Assembly (NCBI GenBank): GCA_029717555.1
Contig: JAMDHS010000017.1
Span: 124,001 to 188,000 of the forward strand
Source of the DNA: Peribolospora baueri
Lineage: Eukaryota
Reading direction: 5' to 3'
Length of the DNA: 64,000 bases
How positions within the stretch are numbered: the stretch's first letter is position 1; each line of letters starts with the position of its first letter. A program made the translations under genes and the position numbers. The notes below the pieces were generated by a model. The model saw nothing but the letters and a program-made list of their open reading frames with translations. It was not told where the DNA came from and searched no databases. This document shows, piece by piece, positions 11,131 to 57,575 of the stretch.

Positions 11131-12205
11131 AAGTCCACTCTGTGTGTCTGTCTGTCTGTTTGCTTGTCTGTTTGTGTGTGTCCAATCACGTCAGCGAAAC
11201 GTATGTACGAGTACTGCATATGTAATCTCCCACCGTGGCGGTCGTAAGCTTGCCGATCGGCCCTTCCCTTCCTTCCTTCGTTCCCGCACCGGGAAGACGA
11301 AGGGCGGGCGAGAAGTCCGAAACATGTGACGGTGTGCCCAATCGGGGCGGCTTGGGATGAAGTGGGCATCATGTATGTGCATGACGGTCATCTGAGCCTT
11401 AGTTGGGTGGCACGGCGCGGCGCGGCCTGCCCACCCCACCGCCAACTCGTGAGGGCCGCAAGAGAGACGGCCGAACGTACAAGACGACGGACGGGACGGG
11501 TCGCGTCGTGCGAGAACGGTCCCACCTACCCTGGGGCCCTCCTTCGCCTTGTGTGGAATGATAATAAGGTAGGCGTCACGATGGCGCCTCCCTCTAGGAG
11601 AGATGGAACGGCGCCTTTGAGAGGTCCACCAAGGACGTTTTTGCGCCGTCTTGATCTCGCTTCCGTGGAACGTTTGGAACAGAAGGTGGGCGTGAATAGA
11701 AGGTGGGCGTGAATACAGGCGTGCCTCGGTAACAACCTGTGGGGAGGAGAGAGAGAAAGGGAGAGGGTGAGATAGTAAAAAAGGGACGAGGAGCAAGGAC
11801 CTGCGTGGACGCTAGGCTTGGCGGACAGAGTGGCTCGTCTTATTCTCCAGCAATGAGGCGGCGGTGTGTATGCGTGGATCAGGTCGTTGGATTCGGATGG
11901 AGACGTCAGCGTGCGTGGTCGGAGAGGGCGTTAAATGCGAAGAAGCGAAAAGTGGAGGGGAAGGCGAAAGAGGGGATAGATGATGTGCGTAATCTACATG
12001 CGACAGGCGGGGAGAGACAAGCCGGGTGACGAGAGGACAGAGAGGGGAGCCCGAGATGGAGGTGAGAAAACGAAAAGGAAGTGATATGAAGCGGAGGCGG
12101 CGATCGACGGAAAGGGCAAAAAGGGTCCTTGGTTGGACGAGCGTGAATGACGTCAGAGGGCCGGGCGAAGACGAAGACGAGGCGACCCGACGAGGTGGTC
12201 TTGGC

Positions 12206-14447
12206 TCAATAGTTGACAGTGACCAGGAACTCGGCCTTCTTTCCTCCACCACCGCCAGCGGGGGCGAGGGGCGCTCCGCCGCCGCATTTGCATGGACCTG
12301 AGCCCGGGCAGCACCGGTACCCGCTGCCAGGGACGCACCACCATGGACCGCCTCCGCCCCCGTAGCGGGCGACGATGCCGGCGAGGGCGTCCTGTGATGG
12401 CGACACGGCAGAAATGGGCAATGAACAGAAGACGTGAGTCGTGAAGGACGGCCAGAAGGAGCGCTCCTCGATCGTAATAGACAGTTGAAAAAGCGAAATG
12501 AGAAAGGGAGGAAAAGCAACGCACGTCGACACCATCAGAGGTAGGCACTTTCTCATATGCGCCCTTCTTCTTCGCCTCCTCCTCCTTTTTCTTCTTCTCT
12601 TCCGCTTCCTTCTTCTTCTTCTCCTCTTCCTTCTTTTTCTTCTCCTCCTCTGCCTTCTTCTTCAGCTCCTCCACCCTGCCCGGTATGAAGATGGGCGCCA
12701 GGTCGAAGGCTAGGAGGAGCGCGGCGGCGAGGCTGAGAAGGAGCAAAGCAGGAGGGAAGGGACGACAAACGAAAACGAGGTCAGCGCGGGTGCGTGGGTG
12801 CAGCCAAATCGAGGGCTGGGGCCAGCTCGAACGAAACTCACAACTCGGTGACGACGAACAAGATCCAAAACGCGACGGCAGACTCTGGCGGGGACCTGCC
12901 TATCCCCTTGAGCGAGTCCCAGCTCATGTAGACGCCCTGATACTGGCTAAGCTCACCGCCGGGGTGGCCGGCGGCGGTCCATGCGGTCTCGGCCACAGCG
13001 CCTGCCCAGATGCACCAGATAAAGTGGATCAGTAGGAGGGCAAGGCCGCCTTCGAGGATGGCAAGCGCCATCGTAGGGATCTTGTGCACCGAACGGGCCA
13101 TCAGGGTGCTGCGGAGATGAAACGAAGATTGGTTTTTGATGGTCCGGGAGGTGGGTTGGGAGAGGGAAGACGGCGTCAGTGTGGGGGAGCGACTCCTTCC
13201 ATTGCTGAGCGCAACCGGAAAGGAGGGGACCGGGCTCACAAGAACATGGCGACCAGAATGACGCCCATCTCGATCAAGCTAGCGGCAAGGGGCAGCAATG
13301 GCGCGGCCTGGTCTGGCCTACCATCGTTGACGCCGGCGCCGGAGGAGCTGCTTGGCGTGTTTTGGTTGAGGAAGACGGCCAAAGCGGCCGAGCCGCCGAT
13401 GTAGAACGCAAAGGCGCCGGCGTTGACGATGCGCAAACCGAGTATCGACATTGGGCTGAACTTGGGCGCTCGAACCGTGAACAGATATAGATATACCTCC
13501 AACTGTGGGTGTGGGTGTGGGAGGAAAGCATATGAGCGGGCGGAGAGAGATCTTTTGCGGTGTTGCGGAGCACCCGAGTCCGGCAATCGTCCTCACCAGG
13601 AAAGGCGTCGCAGCCTGCAGGAAGACTTGCTCAATGACGATCCCTCCGGTGGTCGGATCGTTATTCGCCAGATATGCCCTAAGCGGGGTGGGTGGACGGA
13701 GGGGGAGCCGAAGGCCAGATGAAGAAGAGGGATACGGAACCAGGCCGGGTCAGTTTTTTGAGTCGTTTTCATCGAGGTACCGCGGAGAGACGGGAAGAGG
13801 GACTTACCTAGCTGCAAAGGTAGCGAGCCTGAGCACCAAAAAGAAAGCAAGAATCAGTGAGGCTATCTGAACGGCCAACAGCTTCCTAGTGAACCTCCAT
13901 GCCAAGGCGGCCAACAGGGCCAGGTAGAGGAGAAGGAAGATGACCGAGCTGGAGGGGTGGAGGGGCGCATGATGGACATTGGCGAGAATGAAGTGGACGT
14001 CAGCGGGCGTGCCCCGGAGGGGAAAGAAGAAGGAGAGAGAGGAAGAGAGCGAGCGGTAGGCACGCACGCAACCATATCGTCGCTTTCGTCGGGCACGACG
14101 CCATAGATGACTTGCACCCAGCTCGGGCCAGGCCAGACGGCGCAGGTACCGCCGCTGCCGCAACCCGGCGAGGTCTCGGGCGAGCTAGTGGGCCAGGGCG
14201 TGGTGGTGGTAGAGGAGGAGTGGTGGGAGGGGGTATACGGGTACGAGTTAGAGATGGTGGTGGTGATGGTGGTGGTACAGTCGTCCCACTCGGTCGTCAT
14301 CGTCGTCGTCGTCGTCCACCACCTCCGCGCCAGCTGCGTCGCTGCCGCCGCCGCCGTGGGTCCGGCCGTACGAACGGCTGAGGCGGCTGCGCGTAATGGG
14401 TAGGAGGTGGGTGTTGCCGGGGTGGGGACGATGGGGAATGCAGGCAT
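12206..14447 (-). CDS. RTA1-like multi-pass (about 7 TM) membrane protein with Thr/Pro-rich N-terminus, K/E-rich coil and Cys-rich tail; about 7 exons
   Basis: Spliced reading: ...PDESDDMVA|SVIFLLLYLALL...LVLRLATFAAR|AYLANNDPTTGGIVIEQVFLQAATPFL|LEVYLYLF...GVILVAMFL|...FWILFVVTEL|LAAALLLAFDL...KKKEEE...|DALAG...WWCVPGSGYRCCPGSGPCKC...VTVNY*. Intron phases checked are consistent. Confidence 0.7.
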
Positions 14448-15484
14448 CTTGGCGGCGTCGTCGTTGAGGTCGTCAATGAAAGGTTATTGCTGTGGTCGGA
14501 TGGTCTCCTCGCCCGCGATCGGGCGGGAGGAGAGGGAGGAGGAGGAGGAGGAGGATAGGAGGTGGGACGAGAATAGCTTGAGGAGAGCAGATGATAACGG
14601 AAGAGGGAACAGAGGGAGGGCCCTCGTGGGTGGGGGAGCACTTGGATAAGAATGGGAGAGGGAGAGGGAGGGGGAGGGATGAGGCTTGCGATACAACATC
14701 CACTCCCTTCTTTCTTTCATTAAGGCCGTCGCTCGCGTACACATGGATGGGCACCGCATCACGCTGACTTGCGAAGGCGGAGGGAGAACATCGGTCAACA
14801 TGCACCTCCCTTCCGACCGGCGACGCGATGATAGATAGATGGAACCACATATGATGCCGACGACCACGGAGCGACGGCCGACGGACGCTAACCCACACGG
14901 ACGAGGCGATACATACGACAGTTGCTCTTCCTTCCGACGTCTTCGTCGCCGCCACCCTCGTATACAACCTGGGCGCTTCGATGGGTCAGATCAGTAACAA
15001 AGCGGCCACATCTCGCATCTGGGAGCGCAGAGACGCCGGCGCCGACGGCGGAAGCAAGGGGCTCAGGGGGAAGTGCATCGCCTCGCCCCAAAGACGACGT
15101 ACATGCATATGCGTCGTAGAACGTATCTGTGTAACATAGCTGTCACCCGTCGCCGTGCAACGTGAGCATCCGGCGCACATGCTTAGGAGCCGATCAGACC
15201 GACCTGTCATCCATCCACATCCAACGCCATAGACGAGGACATCGAACAGACAGACACGAGACAGAATTGCCATCAGGATCAGGGACCAGGTACGGTATCC
15301 ATGCGAACCCCTAAATGAGAAGAAGTGGCCCGTCAGGTCTGATCGCAAGTAACTCAGGGCGAAATTGCTTTCCCTTCGGCCGTTGCCGTCTCCTCTTGCG
15401 GCTCTGGAGGAAATGAGCGCTGGCGAGACGAGAAGATGATCGAGCCGGAAGCCGGTCGCGCTTGGGCGCGTCGGGGTAGCCTCG

Positions 15485-16703
15485 TGTCACGTGCGTCCGC
15501 CGGTATGCACTTGCATGAGCGTGGGAACAATAGGAAAAGGATGCGATCCTCAGATGCGCTGTAATCAAACAGCGTGAAAGCCCGTCGATACCTTGTTCTC
15601 TTGGTTACAATCGCTTAAGCCCGCCAACCCTGCGAACAGGTTATTAGCCCAGGCTCAAGTCGTCTAACCGCGCACGGACCAAGCAAGAACAAGGACAAGA
15701 TGTCGACCCACCGAAAGCGACGCTCGAGCGACGTATTCGACGACCAATCGCGTCCAACGACCCCTAAGAACGACACGACGACGAACTACGCGAAGCTTTC
15801 GCGTCCATCGCGGTCGAAGACAGCTCGCCTCCTAGGGTCCTGGAAGAAGTCTCGCACGCACGAGGCAATGAAGGCGCCGACGTCAGCTGAGAGGAAAGCC
15901 CGAAGCAGGAAACCACCGAACAGCGTCAAGGCTTCATGCCACAGCAGCCTCAGCGGCTGCCTATGTGGACGCTTCAGTGGCCTGCGAATGTGCAAGGAGG
16001 GACGCACACGTATGCGATGCCTCCTGCGTTTTGGCCTCAACTTGTACAAGGTCAACAGGCTCCAATGCCTTGGCCCCAGACCACGCAAGGTCAGCCGCCT
16101 CCAATGCAGCAAGTTTACTTGCCATGGCCGGCTTTCCATCCGTCGGTCTCCCAGCCTCCTCCCGATGTGCAAGGTGCACCGCACTGGTCGCGACGAAAAC
16201 AAGGACGTCGGTCACAACACCTCAGCCGGACCGACAGTCGAGTCCCAAAACGGACGAGAGAGGGAGAAGGAGATTGAGAAGGATGAGAATAGGGCCAATC
16301 AGCTCGTGACAACGCTTATGAACTCCAAGGAGGTCAAACTCATGGGTCCGAACTACGACGCTTGGCAGTTTGCGTTCAGGCAGGTTGCCGGGGCCATCTC
16401 ACCCGGATCGCTCCGGATCATCGAACGCAAGGAGATCGGGCCCCCGGATAACGCTCCCCAGTGGGAGAAAGACGTTTTCAAGGAGCAGAAGCAGCGGGCA
16501 CAGTCTGCGCTTGTACTCGCTCTCGACGAGCAGCACAGACACGAAATGAGGGAAGTCGAGGATCCGCACGAAATCTGGAGGTCTTTGGCGGAAGGTACAA
16601 GCCTATCGAGCAATCGTCCTCTCTGGGTGCAGTTGGAGAACCTCTTTGCGGCAGATCATCATGCTCGGAAAGAGGTTCTCCAACTGCACCCAGAGAGGAC
16701 GAT
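15485..16703 (+). mobile_element. Truncated Ty1/Copia LTR retrotransposon remnant (putative 5' LTR, PBS, decayed gag)
   Basis: Candidate LTR TG(15485)...CA(15638), followed directly by GGTTATTAGCCC (one mismatch to the Copia-type PBS GGTTATGAGCCC). Gag/UBN2-like peptide LMGPNYDAWQFAFRQV...AQSALVLALDEQHRHEMREVEDPHEIWRSL. No pol. The LTR start is tentative. Confidence 0.8.
15700..16660 (+). pseudogene. Copia gag remnant
   Basis: The protein-like reading shifts frame near 15770 and near 16180, with an internal TGA near 15887; truncated at the hairpin loop. Confidence 0.65.
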
Positions 16704-16766
16704 GAAGACCTCCAGATTTCGTGCGGATCCTCGACTTCCCTCATTTCGTGTCTGTGCTGCTCGTCG
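16524..16766. repeat. Fold-back inverted repeat (hairpin)
   Basis: 16524-16585 is the exact reverse complement of 16705-16766 (62 bp). 16613-16647 is the exact reverse complement of 16669-16703 (35 bp). 21-nt loop; 27-nt bulge on the left arm. Confidence 0.97.
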
Positions 16767-16781
16767 GTGCGAGTGGCGCTC

Positions 16782-16853
16782 CTTATATACAGCGCATCAG
16801 AGGATCGCCTCCTTTTCCTTCCTCTCGTCCCACGCTCATCCACGTGCATACCG
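16782..16853 (-). mobile_element. Inverted, diverged LTR-like fragment with TATATAAG
   Basis: The reverse complement of 16788-16853 aligns to 15501-15563 at roughly 80% by eye. TATATAAG on the minus strand at 16782-16789. Confidence 0.75.
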
Positions 16854-18562
16854 CCCTACTGTAGCAACGGCGCTGCTGCTGCAGCAACTAGCAAGGAAGG
16901 CTTATTAACGGTCCCTTTCTTCTAACATCCCCGCTCCAGCCTCGCTGCGGCACGGAGAGGAGGACGATTGGACGGCGTTCCGGGCGACGAACTTTTACGT
17001 CTTTGCTACTTGCATACTTCCTTGAGGCCCGCGTCGGTGACAGAAGTTGAACGATGCGTGGGCTGGGAGGTATGTGACGGGCGGGTGACTCGGGCCGTCC
17101 GGCAGCCTGATCGTCGTTAGCGGCGGTAGCCAGCACTCGAACGAGGCCGGCGCTCCAGCGCATCATCGATGATGGGTGTCCTCGACGTCCGCAGCGCATG
17201 GTATGCACAGTAGGACGACTTGTTTCCATGCGTCGTTCAGAGTCTCCCGACGTTGGGTGCCCGCGTCCCGCTGCGAGCTCGTCTTAGGTCGTGTCGGCGC
17301 GCTTCTCGCGTCTCTCTTCTTTCTCTTCTCACAAACAAACCGTTTGGCCTACGAGGAGTACCATTTCTTCCTTGCTCGGAGAGGTTCGCGCGCCAACGTG
17401 GGAGAGCCGTCTCTCCCTTCGTTGGGGGGCGCGTCGAGTCCTCACTCAACGTGGCCGACACTGTCTGTCCCTAGCTTGACCGCTCGCCCGCTCTGTCTGT
17501 GGGGTGTGTATATAGGCAGCCTGGCGGTCTGTGGGAGCGAGGTCCAAACCGATGGAAGGTCGCCAGACGGGAACACAGCCGTCTGTTCCGTCGTTGTTGA
17601 CCCGTATGGCTGGCTGCCTATGACCGACCAGGAGGGGGAGGAAGAAGGAAGCGTCGTTGACGAATGAAGCGCAGAGTTGGTGAAGAAAGAGCACGCCCTC
17701 GACTGCGGATGGCTCCCTCGACTATGGGAATGGCGACGGCCAGCGGGATCCGGACGTCTTTGATGAAGCGAAGCGGAGTGAGTATTACTATGCATGCTGC
17801 GCAGTATACGGTGACCATGTCACTTGGGGCCGCAGCGCGAGAACGGCGTCCGGACTTGGACATCCCTCGGATCGTGTCCACAGTTCGGTGCAGTTTAAAC
17901 TGGGTGTCAGCGCGTCGAGGGACCGCCCGGTCGGTCGGTCGGCCACACATCCCGTCCCGTCCATCTGAGCTCCTGTCAGGTCGCGGTCGTCTGCGTAGGG
18001 CGCCTCGTCGTTTGTAAATCCACTTTGTCAAAGATGGGGCGACGGGAAGGACGGACGATAACGTCGCGGAGACGGATCCATCAGCACCTCCGCGACCTCT
18101 GGGGCCCCGGGACGCCCGGAACGTCCGGACGGAGGCCGGTCAGGGCGTCCGTGGTATTCGTCATTCGCCGAGTGCTGAGCCACTTGTTTTCCTTCTTCTC
18201 TTCTCCGAACCGTAGACACGTAGATACACAAGGAAGAAAGGGACGCCGGCTCCTGTGTTTACGTACACACCGGCCACTTCCGTCTGGGCCACCTGGGGCG
18301 GACTCGGGCAGCGGCCGGGAAAACGGATTTGCCGGCGCGCCTCCTGCTGACGTCGGCAGATTAGATCAAGGTAAAGAAAGGGTCGGGTCGACCGGCAATA
18401 CACAACGTCGCCGGTGCTCGTCGCTCCTTCTTCCATTAGTCAGTCACGTCCCCAGATCGGGGCGGGTGCCGGGACTGGGCGCTGTGTGTCTGGGGTAGCA
18501 CACAACGTCCGGCGATCCGGAATGGAGGCCAGGAGGGGATACGAAATTCCGTTGCCGGAGTG

Positions 18563-18618
18563 AGACAGCTGACAGGCAGACAGCTGACAGGCAGACAGAC
18601 AGACAGACAGAAAGACAG
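18563..18618. repeat. (AGAC)n-type simple repeat upstream of the monooxygenase
   Basis: agacagctgacaggc x2 followed by (agac)n. Confidence 0.7.
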
Positions 18619-18886
18619 ATCTCCGCCCCGCCTGCACCGGCGCAGGCGGCTCGCACAAGCACCACTATTTGAAGGACCCCCGCCCGAGCGCAAGGTCATC
18701 CCCGTCCCTCCCTTCCACCTGCACACGGCACCATCGCCTTCTTCGTCTCCCGATCCACCCAGCTCGCCGCCGCCGTCTCTCCGTCGGAGGCCCCCGCAGC
18801 GCCTTTTCCTTCCTCGTCACCGCGGCATCTTCCTCCTTCATCGCTCGCCTAGCCGACACCCACCAAGGCTCCCATCCTCGACAGAT

Positions 18887-21800
18887 ATGGCCACCTCAGA
18901 CTCGAAGCCGAGCCAGGGAACTCCGGCGACGCAAGAGGAGACCCACGCCGTTCTCTCCTCCGTCGACCTGCACAAGTACCCGGCCACGCACACGGAGATC
19001 AACGACGACGAGTGGGATTTCGTCATCGTCGGCGTGAGTGGACAGCCGGCCTTGCTGAATGTTCTTTCGCGTCGCCGGGCGCTCTAGCGCGTGCCGCAGG
19101 TTTCGCTCAATCTTCCGGCCTTTCTCTCTGCTTTCGCTCCCCGTCTCTTTTCGTCTTTTTTTGATGATGCCGACGACAGGCTGGCCCAGCGGGCCTGATG
19201 CTCGCCGTGAGTATGTGCAGATGGCGTTCGATTGGGCGCGCTCGCGCATCCAGCCGTGAGAGGGCGAGCGTGTACAGGAAATCTCACCTTGGTCCCGCTC
19301 TCGTGTCTTTTCGTCTCCCAGGCGTCTCTCGCTCGCTTCGGAGGACACAAGATCCTTGTCGTCGATGAGCGTTCCGAGCCTACCACCGGTGCGTAGCCCA
19401 GGCGCGGAAAAGGCCTCCCCTTCGCCCTCGACTCACGTTTACCTTGTAGACTGATCCCCTCCCGCTCTCCCCCTTCCAGCTGGCAGAGCGGACGGCGTCC
19501 AACCGCGCACGATCGAAGTCCTTCGCAACATGGAGCCTTTAGGCACAGAGTTCGTCCAGCGCTCGAGCGCCAGCTTTGAACGCACGTTTTGGGATCCCAA
19601 GGCGGACGGTTCGAGGGGGATCGAGAGAACTAGGAGGGTGCAGAGTTTCCCTGCTGGCATGGAAATTCAGGGTGAGTATGAGCAAGTCGGCCGAAACTTG
19701 ACGTACGCCCCTTTTTCAATTGTCTTTTCGTTTTTTCCATTGTCCGCCCATTTCCTTCTGTCCAGACAACTGCACGCTCGGAATACAGCAAGGTCTGATC
19801 GAGGGCGCCTTCTTGAGAGACATGGACAGGCACGGTCTCCGAGTCACACGGCCATGGGTGCGTCCGGACACTTCGTCCCGCCTTAGCCGCGGTTTGGGGA
19901 AAGGAAAGAAGCTCGCGCCTTCTTTCACTCGCTTACCTCTTTCTTGATTTCATGCTCTTGTTACCTTGCACACGGAAAATAGGGCTTCAAAAACTTTGTT
20001 CTGGACAACTCTCCGACCCACCCCGTCGCGGTGACCCTCCAAAAGTTCCTTCCCACCGTCGATACTGTCAACCAATCCGGCCAGCCCACCTCTGCGCCTC
20101 TTAAGCCGACGGGCGAAGTGAAGGAGGTGCGGACCAAGTTTTTGATCGGCTGCGATGGAGGGAGGAGCAGCGTTCGTGCCGTGATGGAGAGGGAACACGG
20201 AGTGACGATGACCGGAGACTGGGTGGATACGCTGTGGAGCGCGCTGGACTGCGTCGTCGAGACGGACTTTCCTGGTGAGCTTCGATGCGTGGCAACGAAT
20301 GGATGGGCGCGTTGTGTTCTACGTGCGCGACGTACGACGGCTCATTCGTGTCCCCCTCCTCCTCCCCCCTTTCCCTTCTTTGACACCCGCGACTGGAAGA
20401 TGTGAGGAAGATCGCCGCCATCCACTCGAGGAACCACGGCGCGCTGTACATCTTCCCACGCGAGGAGACTCCGGACGGCAAGCCAATCATCAGAGCGTGA
20501 GCATGGGCCCCCTGTGTCATCCTGGATCCCCTTCCGGGAGCTGCGATTTGCTTCTTTGGCTTGAGATGATACTCACCCTTCCTCCTTCCCTGGCACCCCA
20601 ACGTCTCATCATCTCGGACACAGATACACCCAAGTTAACTACCTCGAAGGTAAAAAGTCCAACGAGAGCGCTCTGACCGCCCGAGACAAGATCACGAAGG
20701 AGATGGTGCAGAAGGCCATTCAGGAGATCGCCTACCCTTACAAGTTTGAATTCAAGCGTGAGCTACCAGACGATGTGCACGTACAGACGTTTCGGATGTC
20801 GAAAGGGCGATCTCGATCTGACCTGACCGTTTTGTGCTGTCCTCGGGCTCGGACCTCGGCCTCCTTCGCTTCCATAGAGGTCGAATGGGTGAGTGTTTGG
20901 AGGCGATCGCTGCCCGGTCGGGAAGGCGCCGAGCCGAGCTTAGCTGACGGTTTCCCTCCCTTCTTTTCGTTGCTTCTGCAGTTCACCGCGTATCCCATCG
21001 GTCAGCGAATCGTCAGCCGCTACTCGAACCTAGGTTCCGAGGGCAAGTTCCCTGCCCACCATGTCTTCCTCGCCGGCGACGCTTGTAAGTGGTATATTCA
21101 CGACGGCGGGATTTATGGTGCCCTCATCTGCTCCCACGGATTTGGTGTTCCCTTCGCTCATCCCTATTCCCCCGCTCTTCCCCTCCCATTTCTTCAAGGC
21201 CACACTCATTCGCCCAAGGCCGGACAGGGCATGAACACGGCGGTCATCGATGCGCACGCGCTCGCTTGGCGCTTCAACCTCGTCCAAAAGGGCATGGCAA
21301 ATCACGATGCCCTTCTTGGCTCTTACCACGACGAGCGCTGGAAGGTCGGAAGGCAGCTGATCGACTTTGATGCCGAGTACGCCGCTCTGTTCAGCGGTGA
21401 GATTCCTAAGAGCCAACCGCATCTGATCAACATGAGTGAAGAGGAGAGGAGGGAACACTTCATCCATGTTCAGAGGAGGAACGTGAGTTAGGATGGGAGC
21501 CATACCTTCGCTTTCACACTCGTCTAGGCCGAAAGCTGACAATGATGCGTCTCGAAAACTCCGCGTGACGTTCTATAGGCCGCTTTCACGACCGGCGCCG
21601 GTGTGGTCTACCACGACGGCCTCCTCAACTACCGGGATCCTCGTCCCCTCGGCCTACCCGGGCCCGTCACCAAATACCTCGAGCCCGGCGCCCGACTCGA
21701 GCCGGCATGGGTGACGCGCTTCGTCAACTCCGAGCCGGTGCGCATCATTCACGAGATCCAATACGACGCACCCGGCGGCTTCCGCATCTATGTCTGCACC

Positions 21801-54347: not shown

Positions 54348-56539
54348 TCAAACGCTCCGGTTGACAGAGTCCTCCTCCAATTTCTCTTTCGCCCAAAGCA
54401 GCTCCGCCCTGCGCGTTACGACGGCGCGGAGGTTCTCCATCTTGTCGCAGAGGTCTCGGGAAAGGTAGGTCACCTCTTCGCCGTCCTTCGTCCAGCGGAG
54501 AGGCTCGGAGGCGGGAATGTGGCCGTTGCCTGTAAGGTGGCCGTTGGCGTGGCCGTTGGCGTGGCCGTTGGCATGGCCGTTGGCGTGGCCGTTGGCATGG
54601 CCGTTGGCGTGGCCGTTGGCATGGCCGTTGGCGTGGCCGTCGGCATGGCCGTTGGCGTGGCCGTTGGCGTGGCCGTTGGCATGGCCGTTGGCGTGGCCGT
54701 TGGCATGGCCGTTGGCGTGGCCGTTGGCGTGGCCGTTGGCATGGCCGTTGGCGATGGCGGTGCTGTAACCTTGCTCATTCTCCTTCACGCCAACAACGAC
54801 CTTCCCAGACGATCTGGCTGAGTCGACCTTCCAACCGTCCATGCTACTTTGCCCGACATAAGCGCGCCCCAAAACGTCGCAGCAAGAACGGTAAAGGGTG
54901 GTGCGGTCGAGGCAAGAGGAGGGGGCGAGGGAGGCGTGGGAGATTGCGATGGCGCCTTTTTCGTAAGTGATCGGATGGTTCGGCGAGAACATGTAGCGGG
55001 CCTTTAGGGGCGCAGAGTAAGGAAGGCGAGAAAGCGGTGAGTCGAGGTCTGCCGGAGACGCGGGCCCAGACCCGAGTAGAGCACGTAGGCTTTTCGCGAT
55101 GACGAAGAGACGGCTACACGACTCACCAAGTAAAACACAATCGTCATGAACCAAGCGGTGACGGGGTTGAGGAACTCTGCGAAGATGTTGGTTGCCACGA
55201 CGCCGGGATGAACGTTATAGCTCTCCACTCTTGCCGCTTTTGGCCCCGTTCCCTCTTTCTCCCCCTCCTCTGCCGCCTCCCGCTCTTGCCTGTCCCGCCG
55301 CTCGAGCTCGCGCTCGATCTCGGGTCGGTGCGCCTCGATGAATCCATCAGCAACGTCCTGGAAAGCGAGACCCGCGAGCTCGCACTGGAACTTGGAGCTC
55401 TCGTAGGACTTGTTCGTTTTAAGGCACTGGTAGTCCTCCGGGTCGTAGAACTTGCGCATGGCTTCAATTGAGGCAACCCAGACGACGCGGGAGAGGCCGT
55501 AGGGGGAGCGGGCGAGGTGCGGGAGCAGGGAGTTGGCCTGGGAGGAGGAGGATAAGGCGAGAGAGTCAGGATATGGCATGGCAAAGACAGCATGCATCGA
55601 CCTCCTTCCTCGTCCGCTTTCTGCCCTCGCAAGGACGACAACCACTCACCAACAGCCAATGTCCGAAAACATTACATTGCCACACCCATCCGAGCCCTTC
55701 GTCGCTCAGATCGCCCGTCCTCTGTAGCTTGTAGGATGGATAGGTGACGGCCGAGGGGAGGCCGGTGAGGATCTTCCAGATGGCCAAGGGCCAGTTTAAG
55801 CCAGACCAGGCGGCCGTCCCGGCGTTGAGAACAACATGTGTTATGTAGGGATATCTGACGGACGGCGATCGAGCGGCAAGGCGGAGGGGCGTTAGCGGAA
55901 AGGGAGCTGCGTAGAGGACGAACGATGAGAAGGACGAGCTCACCTCGCAAGGACCTCCTTGGCGCAAAAGAGTACCGACTCGGAGGAGCTGAGGTCGCAG
56001 CCCACGAACTCGATCCTGAGCCCCTTTTTGAACCTCGCTAGGTGATCCCTCTCCTCAGAGCTGCAGCCGGCGCTGGTCTTCCTAACGTGCTCGTCGAAGA
56101 AGGCCAACAGCCGCTTGCGGGCTTTGTGGGCCTTGATGGTATTGCGGCAGGCAAGGATGAGCGTCGCGCCGTCCGGTGCAGGGAAGGAAGAGTCCGGAAA
56201 GACGGAAGAGGAGAGAGACTTGGTAGAGAAGGGGAGCGAGCGCTGGTCAGCGATGGTGTCTGGTGGATGGGGAGAGGAAAGCTGGACGAGGAGACGATTG
56301 CAGACTCCAAAGCCTACGCCACTGCACGATGACAAACGAAGGAGGAACGAGGATAAGAGGAGGATGTCGGTCGAGCAGCGGCGAGCGTTGGATGTGCGAT
56401 GGACCGAGTCGTCAACGAGGGCCCCGCCGCGTGGAGACGTGCAGGTGATGGAGAAAAAGCGCGGGTCTCACCTGTTGGCGCCTGTGACCAGCACGATGGG
56501 CCTCTTGGGCTTGCAAGACGAGGATGCGAGGGATGACAT
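54348..56539 (-). CDS. ERG27: 3-keto-steroid reductase (SDR); the start could be the in-frame ATG at 56590
   Basis: [69 protein letters not shown]. Confidence 0.9.
54537..54752. repeat. 18 x 12-bp coding minisatellite encoding (ANGH)n in ERG27
   Basis: [g/a]tggccgttggc units over 216 bp; one unit encodes ADGH. Confidence 0.97.
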
Positions 56540-56866: not shown

Positions 56867-57575
56867 CACGTGAACGCGAGCCACAATGTTTGTGTCACGT
56901 GATTCCCTTCCGCCTGCTCCGTAGCCAATTCACCGTCTGTGACGGCTCCTTCCTTAACGGTGCACGGTTGAAGCGTTGCGGGCGAGAGTTTGTCTATGTC
57001 GGTGAACGTCGAGGACGGGGACGGAAACTGAGGGACGAGGGGCAGGGGTGTGGACAGGGAACTGGAGGAAACCTGAGAGGTGACAAAAGTATTCTTAGCT
57101 TGGGGAGAAAAGATGCGGACGCCCTGTCGAGCTCTCTATATATGTTGGAGATTGGCGGCGACGAGCACCGTGGTTAAGCGGCGGAAAGCGGACATGACTA
57201 TGTAGAAGGGCTGTGCTGTTACTGCGGTTTTCCTCTCCTCCTTTTTCCTCTCCCTCTGCAGTTCCCGTCCTTGTATGAGAACCCTGATGATCAAGTCAAG
57301 TAGTCTCTGAAAATGCGTCTGAAGCTAACCGTAATAACGACCCGTGAATGCTCATATCCAACAATATACACGTTCATGAGCCGGTGCAGCGCCGCAGCTC
57401 CTATGTTCTAGCCTCGCAACGCCACAACCCCCATGCTCCAGCCTTGCAACGCCACAACTCCTTTGTCCGAGCCTATGAACGCGAGGTTCTGAGCGGAGGT
57501 TTGAGAACACTCGAGGGCCGGTTGACCTTAGATGCAGGGTCGCGCGGGATCTCGAGCATCACGTGGCGGCACGTG
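56867..57575. promoter_or_regulatory. Cluster of four CACGTG E-boxes in the ERG27/PNPOx-like divergent promoter
   Basis: CACGTG at 56867, 56896, 57560 and 57570. Confidence 0.45.

Follow-up and report, generated by a model that had tools for sequence, protein, structure and literature searches.

The window, by which we mean the whole 64-kb stretch of DNA analysed here, corresponds to positions 124001-188000 of contig C88, in a genome of 22.7 Mb and 668 contigs whose genes are intron-rich and fungus-like. It carries the remains of a Copia-type LTR retrotransposon, flanked on the left by an apparent intron-bearing gene on the minus strand (judged by eye, with no Pfam match) and on the right by a FAD-monooxygenase-like gene on the plus strand. 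The left LTR remnant (15501..15639, plus strand), aligned with four other LTR copies from the genome, has lost some 50 nt at its start and about 48 nt from its interior. The interior part is the one that holds the TATA box in the other copies, and no TATATAA was found within 15480-15640. Directly after the final CA of the LTR lies a primer-binding-site-like motif (15640..15654, plus strand), which we take to be of Copia type and which recurs in a deleted copy of the element on contig C33. It is followed by a decayed gag with small indels (15700..16647, plus strand), delineated by a match to Pfam family PF14223 and by alignment to the C33 copy, which matches 15615-16291 at 85% with 65 gap columns. 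The first-pass annotation of this DNA had named the sequence Copia gag; the PF14223 match at 16462-16593 (E 9e-6) agrees, weakly, scoring 25.7 bits under a 27-bit cut-off. A 123-aa piece of this gag found no homolog among the 1.84 billion representatives searched. No part of the element downstream of gag, pol included, is left at the locus.

The element had been described as ending with the hairpin treated below, which proved incorrect. An inverted LTR of the same family, represented by its 5' part only, continues at 16767..16927 (minus strand), so that the LTR bounds TG...CA are both present, as a TG start at 16927 on the minus strand and the CA end at 15639 on the plus strand. A TATATAA at 16789-16783 in the inverted LTR lies 16 nt from the hairpin arm and is directed into the hairpin. 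The joint between inverted gag and inverted LTR (16767..16774, minus strand; gag counterpart 16515-16524) is one of microhomology: ACTCGC is common to gag and LTR and is followed by a CT tract in both, about 10 nt at most if the CT tract of the LTR was intact. Over 66 alignment columns the LTR halves show 83% identity, versus 100% for the gag arms. A DNA search of the genome with the locus gave 21 matches on seven contigs, comprising the locus itself, LTRs on C44, C241, C66 and C640, the deleted C33 copy, and a scrambled copy on C219. In the C33 copy, gag continues into letters that by eye look integrase-like, and the LTR there (L002:2208-2261) has shrunk to about 47 nt, apparently via deletion between two short direct repeats. 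A second Copia family is represented in the window by an LTR-like piece at 57143-57277, 90% identical to the end of an element on C329, and at 54519-54761 units of about 60 nt, 89-95% alike, are repeated in tandem.

Between gag and the inverted LTR stands the hairpin, whose stem, loop and bulge sizes are as first reported. The left arm of the outer stem (16524..16585, plus strand, 62 nt) is the exact reverse complement of 16705-16766, and the left arm of the inner stem (16613..16647, plus strand, 35 nt) is the exact reverse complement of 16669-16703, so that 62 and 35 bp pair perfectly. The fold-back point is a 21-nt loop (16648..16668), in which folding predicts a few extra pairs closing an 8-nt loop. 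The right arm (16669..16766, minus strand) is the inverted copy of both stems plus one extra base at 16704. Between the two stems, 27 nt of gag in the left arm (16586..16612, plus strand) are skipped in the right arm. This bulge had been called one-sided; the 27 nt are there, and they face one unpaired G (16704), making a 27x1 internal loop. Reading frames and, by eye, the C219 fragment suggest that the bulge is original gag sequence; the inner-stem left arm is 91% identical to that fragment over 32 nt. The arms had also been contrasted, as perfect, with a frameshifted upstream gag. They do have zero mismatches and the upstream gag does carry small indels, but the gag reading is disturbed inside the left arm as well, the Pfam match stopping within the bulge. 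The hairpin folds with z = -26 on the plus and -22 on the minus strand, none of 100 shuffles being as good on either, and an inverted-repeat scan found no other such structure in the 64-kb window. Rfam models gave no match over 12000-21000. A bacterial promoter scan was set aside as irrelevant to a fungus.

The region is present, as contigs, in four DNA runs of one study, of which X1 is a possible source of the window and X3 and X4 derive from a second organism, B. Contigs of X1 and X2 break at 16553 and 16737, 30 nt within the arms, as a perfect repeat requires. Among the contigs listed for organism B, an 81-nt contig crosses the loop with one change (X3; its depth is visible in X4), and in X3 and X4 a 98-nt contig covers the right arm, likewise with the skip junction and with one change, 16732 C>T. 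Between organism B and the window, 121 of 5004 aligned letters differ, or 2.4% (range 2.0-3.6%). Since organism B carries the same loop and skip junction, the fold-back predates this split of about 2.4%. The hairpin is real, it is older than had been claimed (a recent origin fails in the strict sense), and it is one of many in the genome. Nor is it an artefact, as the loop and skip junction recur in organism B with substitutions of their own.

Zero mismatches in 97 bp since the split have a probability of 0.03-0.14 under neutral drift, and among the arm positions visible in B, 1 of 158 has changed versus about 3.8 expected (P 0.11, not significant). In B, the right-arm contig has 1.13x and 1.14x the single-copy depth. 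Depth models predict 1.13x for a bulge plus a one-arm change at 16732, 1.54x for a bulge only, and 2.0x for identical arms. Because the observed depth fits the first of these, unlike identical arms, the arms in organism B are probably not being homogenised. Contig cleaning can drop one side of the bubble that such a bulge makes. We had considered arm homogenisation in B, with a perfect bulge-less stem, on account of the lone 98-nt contig, and rejected it because depth fits a one-arm change and contig cleaning may hide one side. The 16732 change leaves a G-U pair on the plus strand and an A-C mismatch on the strand driven by the TATA box. To the right, the flank is about 97% alike between the organisms; over most of 13000-15400, repeats apart, X3 and X4 have no cover, so that the left neighbour may be specific to one lineage or may have been removed by filtering. 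At 17719-18163, 445 nt are inverted in X4, with a 9-nt overlap at one joint, and are not inverted in X3, which bears the same organism label.

Domain searches of the genome gave opposite-strand pairs of matches, and loci of about 3.3 kb were examined for hairpins, defined as inverted repeats with arms of at least 30 bp within 1 kb. One locus was kept per cluster, which removed 1 of 8 gag, 4 of 11 Copia-RT and 9 of 30 RVT_1 loci; 5 of 35 RVT_1 matches are without a locus, and a few retained loci overlap (on C11, C13 and C627). In the resulting set, which excludes the hairpin at 16524-16766 itself, fold-backs occur in 14 of 46 retroelement-domain loci (about 30%) versus 2 of 120 control tiles, taken from 40 evenly spaced 10-kb stretches on eight long contigs (Fisher P = 2e-7). 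By class, the counts are 4/7 for gag, 2/7 for Copia RT, 1/11 for the integrase core, and 7/21 for RVT_1. Left uncut, the same controls give 2 of 40 stretches with a hairpin, and 23 loci encoding GxDxDGD, a motif of RdRP, give 0 of 23. Both control hairpins match RT-bearing loci by BLAST at 80-96%. Pfam searches with the arms of these two and of a hairpin on C241 gave no match in 45 frames, and the retroelement link of the three rests on BLAST to RT-bearing loci. Extrapolating from two in 400 kb yields about 113 fold-back loci genome-wide (95% range 14-410), a density taken from one fungal genome.

Arms range from 35 to 629 bp across loci, and arm identity per locus, in 17 loci other than the one under study, ranges from 89.6 to 100%; the fold-back process must therefore be viewed as both old and ongoing. 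On C23 the hairpin can be set against the element's own LTR pair, at about 92% versus 95-100%, over short stretches. The mismatches in the 17 hairpins show no strand bias of the G-U type (P 0.66) and no excess of transitions (90:67, versus 82:45 between the organisms, P 0.22), which speaks against a killer function, that is, against maintenance of the hairpins as sources of silencing RNA. A noisy coding model assigned 62 kb of 464 kb of control DNA to long non-coding runs, and there we found no hairpin without relation to a retroelement, versus 5.8 expected at the rate of the retroelement loci.

The genome encodes candidates for both of the RNAi proteins whose presence the first-pass annotation had proposed to check. 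One putative Argonaute, on C175, has matches to the N, L1, PAZ, L2, Mid and Piwi domains, and one putative Dicer, on C110, has DEAD, Helicase_C, Dicer_dimer, two RNase III and dsRBD matches, several of them weak and confined to single exons; both are represented by domain matches on unspliced sequence. A homolog search with a Dicer exon found none, and a second RNase III match, on C641, also fits mitoribosomal mL44 families. For RdRP, model PF05183 gave no candidate in the genome, in a search run without a positive control and in which introns can hide exons, and by eye none of the 23 GxDxDGD-coding sites is RdRP-like. In the portion of PMC4290597 available to us, RdRP is recorded in all Pucciniomycotina examined (one to five genes) and in numbers from 0 to 14 in Agaricomycotina, and the accessible part of PMC4469406 lists it for Microbotryum.

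The locus is built like a killer and is at most a candidate for one. The likeness to Mu killer (Muk) of maize noted earlier is supported in layout: the 5' part of the element is duplicated in inverted orientation between two like ends, with a TATA box that has survived and is directed into the hairpin. In Muk, as the part of PMC3440606 available to us describes it, like ends face inward, each followed by a piece from the 5' part of the gene, in inverted duplication; here the order is LTR-gag / gag-LTR. Muk, however, derives from a DNA transposon, its arms measure about 1.3 kb each, it came to notice through the silencing it causes, and a live target for it exists, whereas the present locus derives from an LTR retrotransposon, has a 97-bp stem, is known from DNA alone, and has no target found. 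Both neighbouring genes point away, and any hairpin RNA would therefore need to originate in the LTR. The LTR TATA box may drive a minus-strand hairpin RNA, which Dicer would cut to a few siRNAs. Silencing of its own family in trans, as first proposed, is not supported, the target searches reaching only the locus itself. A protein search of the genome with the arm region matched that locus alone, and the left arm, compared with 167 other fetched loci (957 kb, overlapping), gave exact matches of at most 13 nt, the best of which include control stretches; both are lower bounds. Across the arms (16471-16737) we found no extra copies in X2, X3 or X4, the depth being fully explained by the local contigs. 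Intact family members corresponding to the arms were likewise not found by protein search or exact matching, and by these lower-bound searches no living target appears to be in sight.

We assign a probability of about one half to the reading that the hairpin is a fold-back repair scar in the dead 5' half of a Copia element, and that such scars accumulate in dead elements. A break or stall in gag would have left a 3' end that folded back at the loop; polymerase would then have copied gag backwards, skipping 27 nt, until a template switch at a short microhomology carried it into an inverted LTR of this family and so rescued the process. Of the origins considered, this one, with two template switches during chromosomal fold-back synthesis and the inverted LTR already in place, has the best support. 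The template-switch origin that the first-pass annotation had offered as one option is supported by the microhomology joint and the skip. Rescue into a pre-existing inverted LTR would explain both why the LTR end is exact and why the LTRs diverge, and the greater divergence of the LTR halves than of the gag arms fits an inverted LTR that is a separate, older copy. Scars would pile up in dead elements because repeats supply homology for rescue and the DNA is dispensable. Any siRNAs would have no known living target, and the locus would now be tolerated, not maintained.

Comparable events are known from Saccharomyces cerevisiae, where fold-back inversions and templated inverted insertions likewise involve fold-back priming, microhomology joints, and rescue by a second rearrangement (excerpts of PMC7467729 and PMC11724301). 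In the sections available to us, PMC11724301 gives the microhomology as about 10 bp and imperfect, with secondary, mostly homology-mediated rearrangements needed, and PMC7467729 too describes a secondary rearrangement as required. Most local duplications in yeast measure 5-34 bp, and they are seldom seen in wild type, whereas those of the present genome span 35-629 bp, are fixed, and cluster in remnants of elements. A literature search, mostly at the level of titles and largely outside the subscription literature, found no published report of fold-backs concentrated genome-wide in fungal element remnants. For a repair scar count the zero mismatches, which fit drift, the unequal arms in organism B, the lack of G-U bias, and the lack of a target. 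Against it count the few arm changes in organism B relative to expectation, a TATA box kept solely on the side facing the hairpin, a right arm that stops exactly at the first base of the LTR, and the presence in the genome of SAE2, in yeast a suppressor of small-loop fold-backs. Nor does dispensability alone clearly explain the pattern, given the long non-coding runs of the noisy coding model, in which the expected unrelated hairpins are missing.

It is possible, though we consider it doubtful, that the hairpin loci are instead the working dsRNA source of an RNAi system without RdRP, in which accidental fold-backs that caught element sequence and a promoter would be kept for silencing in trans. 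The present locus would then be a spent member, its family reduced to remnants. The Argonaute and Dicer matches, the missing RdRP candidate, and the enrichment of hairpins in retroelement loci over control tiles are all consistent with this, as is their distribution over domains (1 of 11 integrase-core loci versus 6 of 14 gag or Copia-RT loci). So too are the inward-facing LTR with its TATA box and the direction of both neighbouring genes. The palindromic loci of Naumovozyma castellii are reportedly composed in part of Ty fragments, in a species said to have no RdRP. N. castellii is the closest genome-level precedent, being a fungus with Dicer, Argonaute and many inverted-repeat loci, whose hairpin RNA makes up 74% of siRNA reads (PMC7528652, in the part available). 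Small RNAs were measured there, whereas here DNA alone is at hand, and the Dicer here is of the canonical helicase type. A model study, PMC3155503, in its accessible part treats hairpins as a workable RdRP-free route. Maize Ac/Ds composite insertions are also inverted duplications of element sequence, transcribed to dsRNA that silences the family (bioRxiv 2020.01.07.897926, as excerpted), but they are made by transposase during replication through alternative transposition, a route not open to an LTR element.

Several observations weigh against such a working system. The 17 other hairpins lack the bias and transition excess discussed above, the sole arm change in organism B makes an A-C mismatch on the strand that the TATA box would drive, and the stem is short. 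The RdRP search had no positive control, while the survey in PMC4290597, as far as it was accessible, has RdRP in all Pucciniomycotina examined. In Candida albicans, which possesses Argonaute and Dicer but lacks RdRP, introducing a hairpin construct brought about no silencing, according to the available part of PMC7175516. A more specific version, which we think rather unlikely, holds that RdRP was lost and that the roughly 113 dispersed fold-back loci supply a single Dicer and Argonaute with hairpin RNA made from pieces of every invading family. They would thereby constitute an acquired, heritable memory against transposons, with fold-backs made or retained preferentially at mobile elements, and the present locus would be a spent promoter-plus-hairpin entry formed from its own LTR and gag.

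The fold-back might also have been made on element cDNA, by snap-back of reverse transcriptase and template jumps that left an LTR start at both ends, and have then been integrated or captured at a break; we judge this improbable. The order of the right arm (gag, skip, gag, jump, LTR) and its end exactly at the first base of the LTR would suit such an origin, and in yeast an inversion can arise on an extrachromosomal single strand that a break then captures (PMC11724301, in the part available). The gag arms, however, show no difference, against about 17% between the LTR halves, the start of the left LTR is gone, and a target-site duplication is unreadable. A library or assembly chimera, suggested by the derivation of all four runs from contigs of one study, with X1 possibly the source of the window, is largely refuted and very improbable, because organism B has the same loop and skip junction with its own substitutions, the arms of other hairpins are only 90-97% alike, and chimeras would not pass over 118 of the 120 control tiles.

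The way in which a new transposon is first recognised by its host is an open question, and to our knowledge only a few individual killer loci have been described. The single locus described here is a modest example; the lead worth following is that fold-backs are enriched genome-wide in a genome with Dicer and Argonaute and no RdRP candidate. Fold-backs of graded age in about 30% of retroelement-domain loci, together with one Dicer, one Argonaute and perhaps no RdRP, would make the question of host recognition testable in a compact fungal genome. Should the hairpins be silent, the genome would still show an unusual repair habit, that of folding dead elements back on themselves.

Individual loci elsewhere in the genome differ considerably in form. 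The hairpin on C241 (L047:5322-6167) is a 404-bp inverted repeat free of mismatches; its 38-nt loop holds a short internal repeat, and it adjoins Copia-like integrase letters. At a distance of about 700 nt lies an LTR of the family found at 16767-16927, its TATA box aimed at this hairpin, and a host gene seems to stop about 30 nt short of the arm. A perfect 157-bp fold-back with a 40-nt loop lies within Copia RT on C17 (L048:5042-5395), and C273 (L127:1192-2567) has a 629-bp inverted repeat of RVT_1 sequence, 99.2% identical, around a 118-nt loop. On C96 (L119:385-1628), a 344-bp hairpin (97%) sits in an RT-bearing element with copies 93-99% alike at L122, L126 and L134; it is a better killer candidate, since young targets exist. 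Telomere-like TAACCC letters adjoin its arm. Finally, a 2694-bp RT-bearing unit on C68 (L169:2169-7556) is present as two head-to-tail copies that are 100% identical and whose open frames are about 850 aa long.
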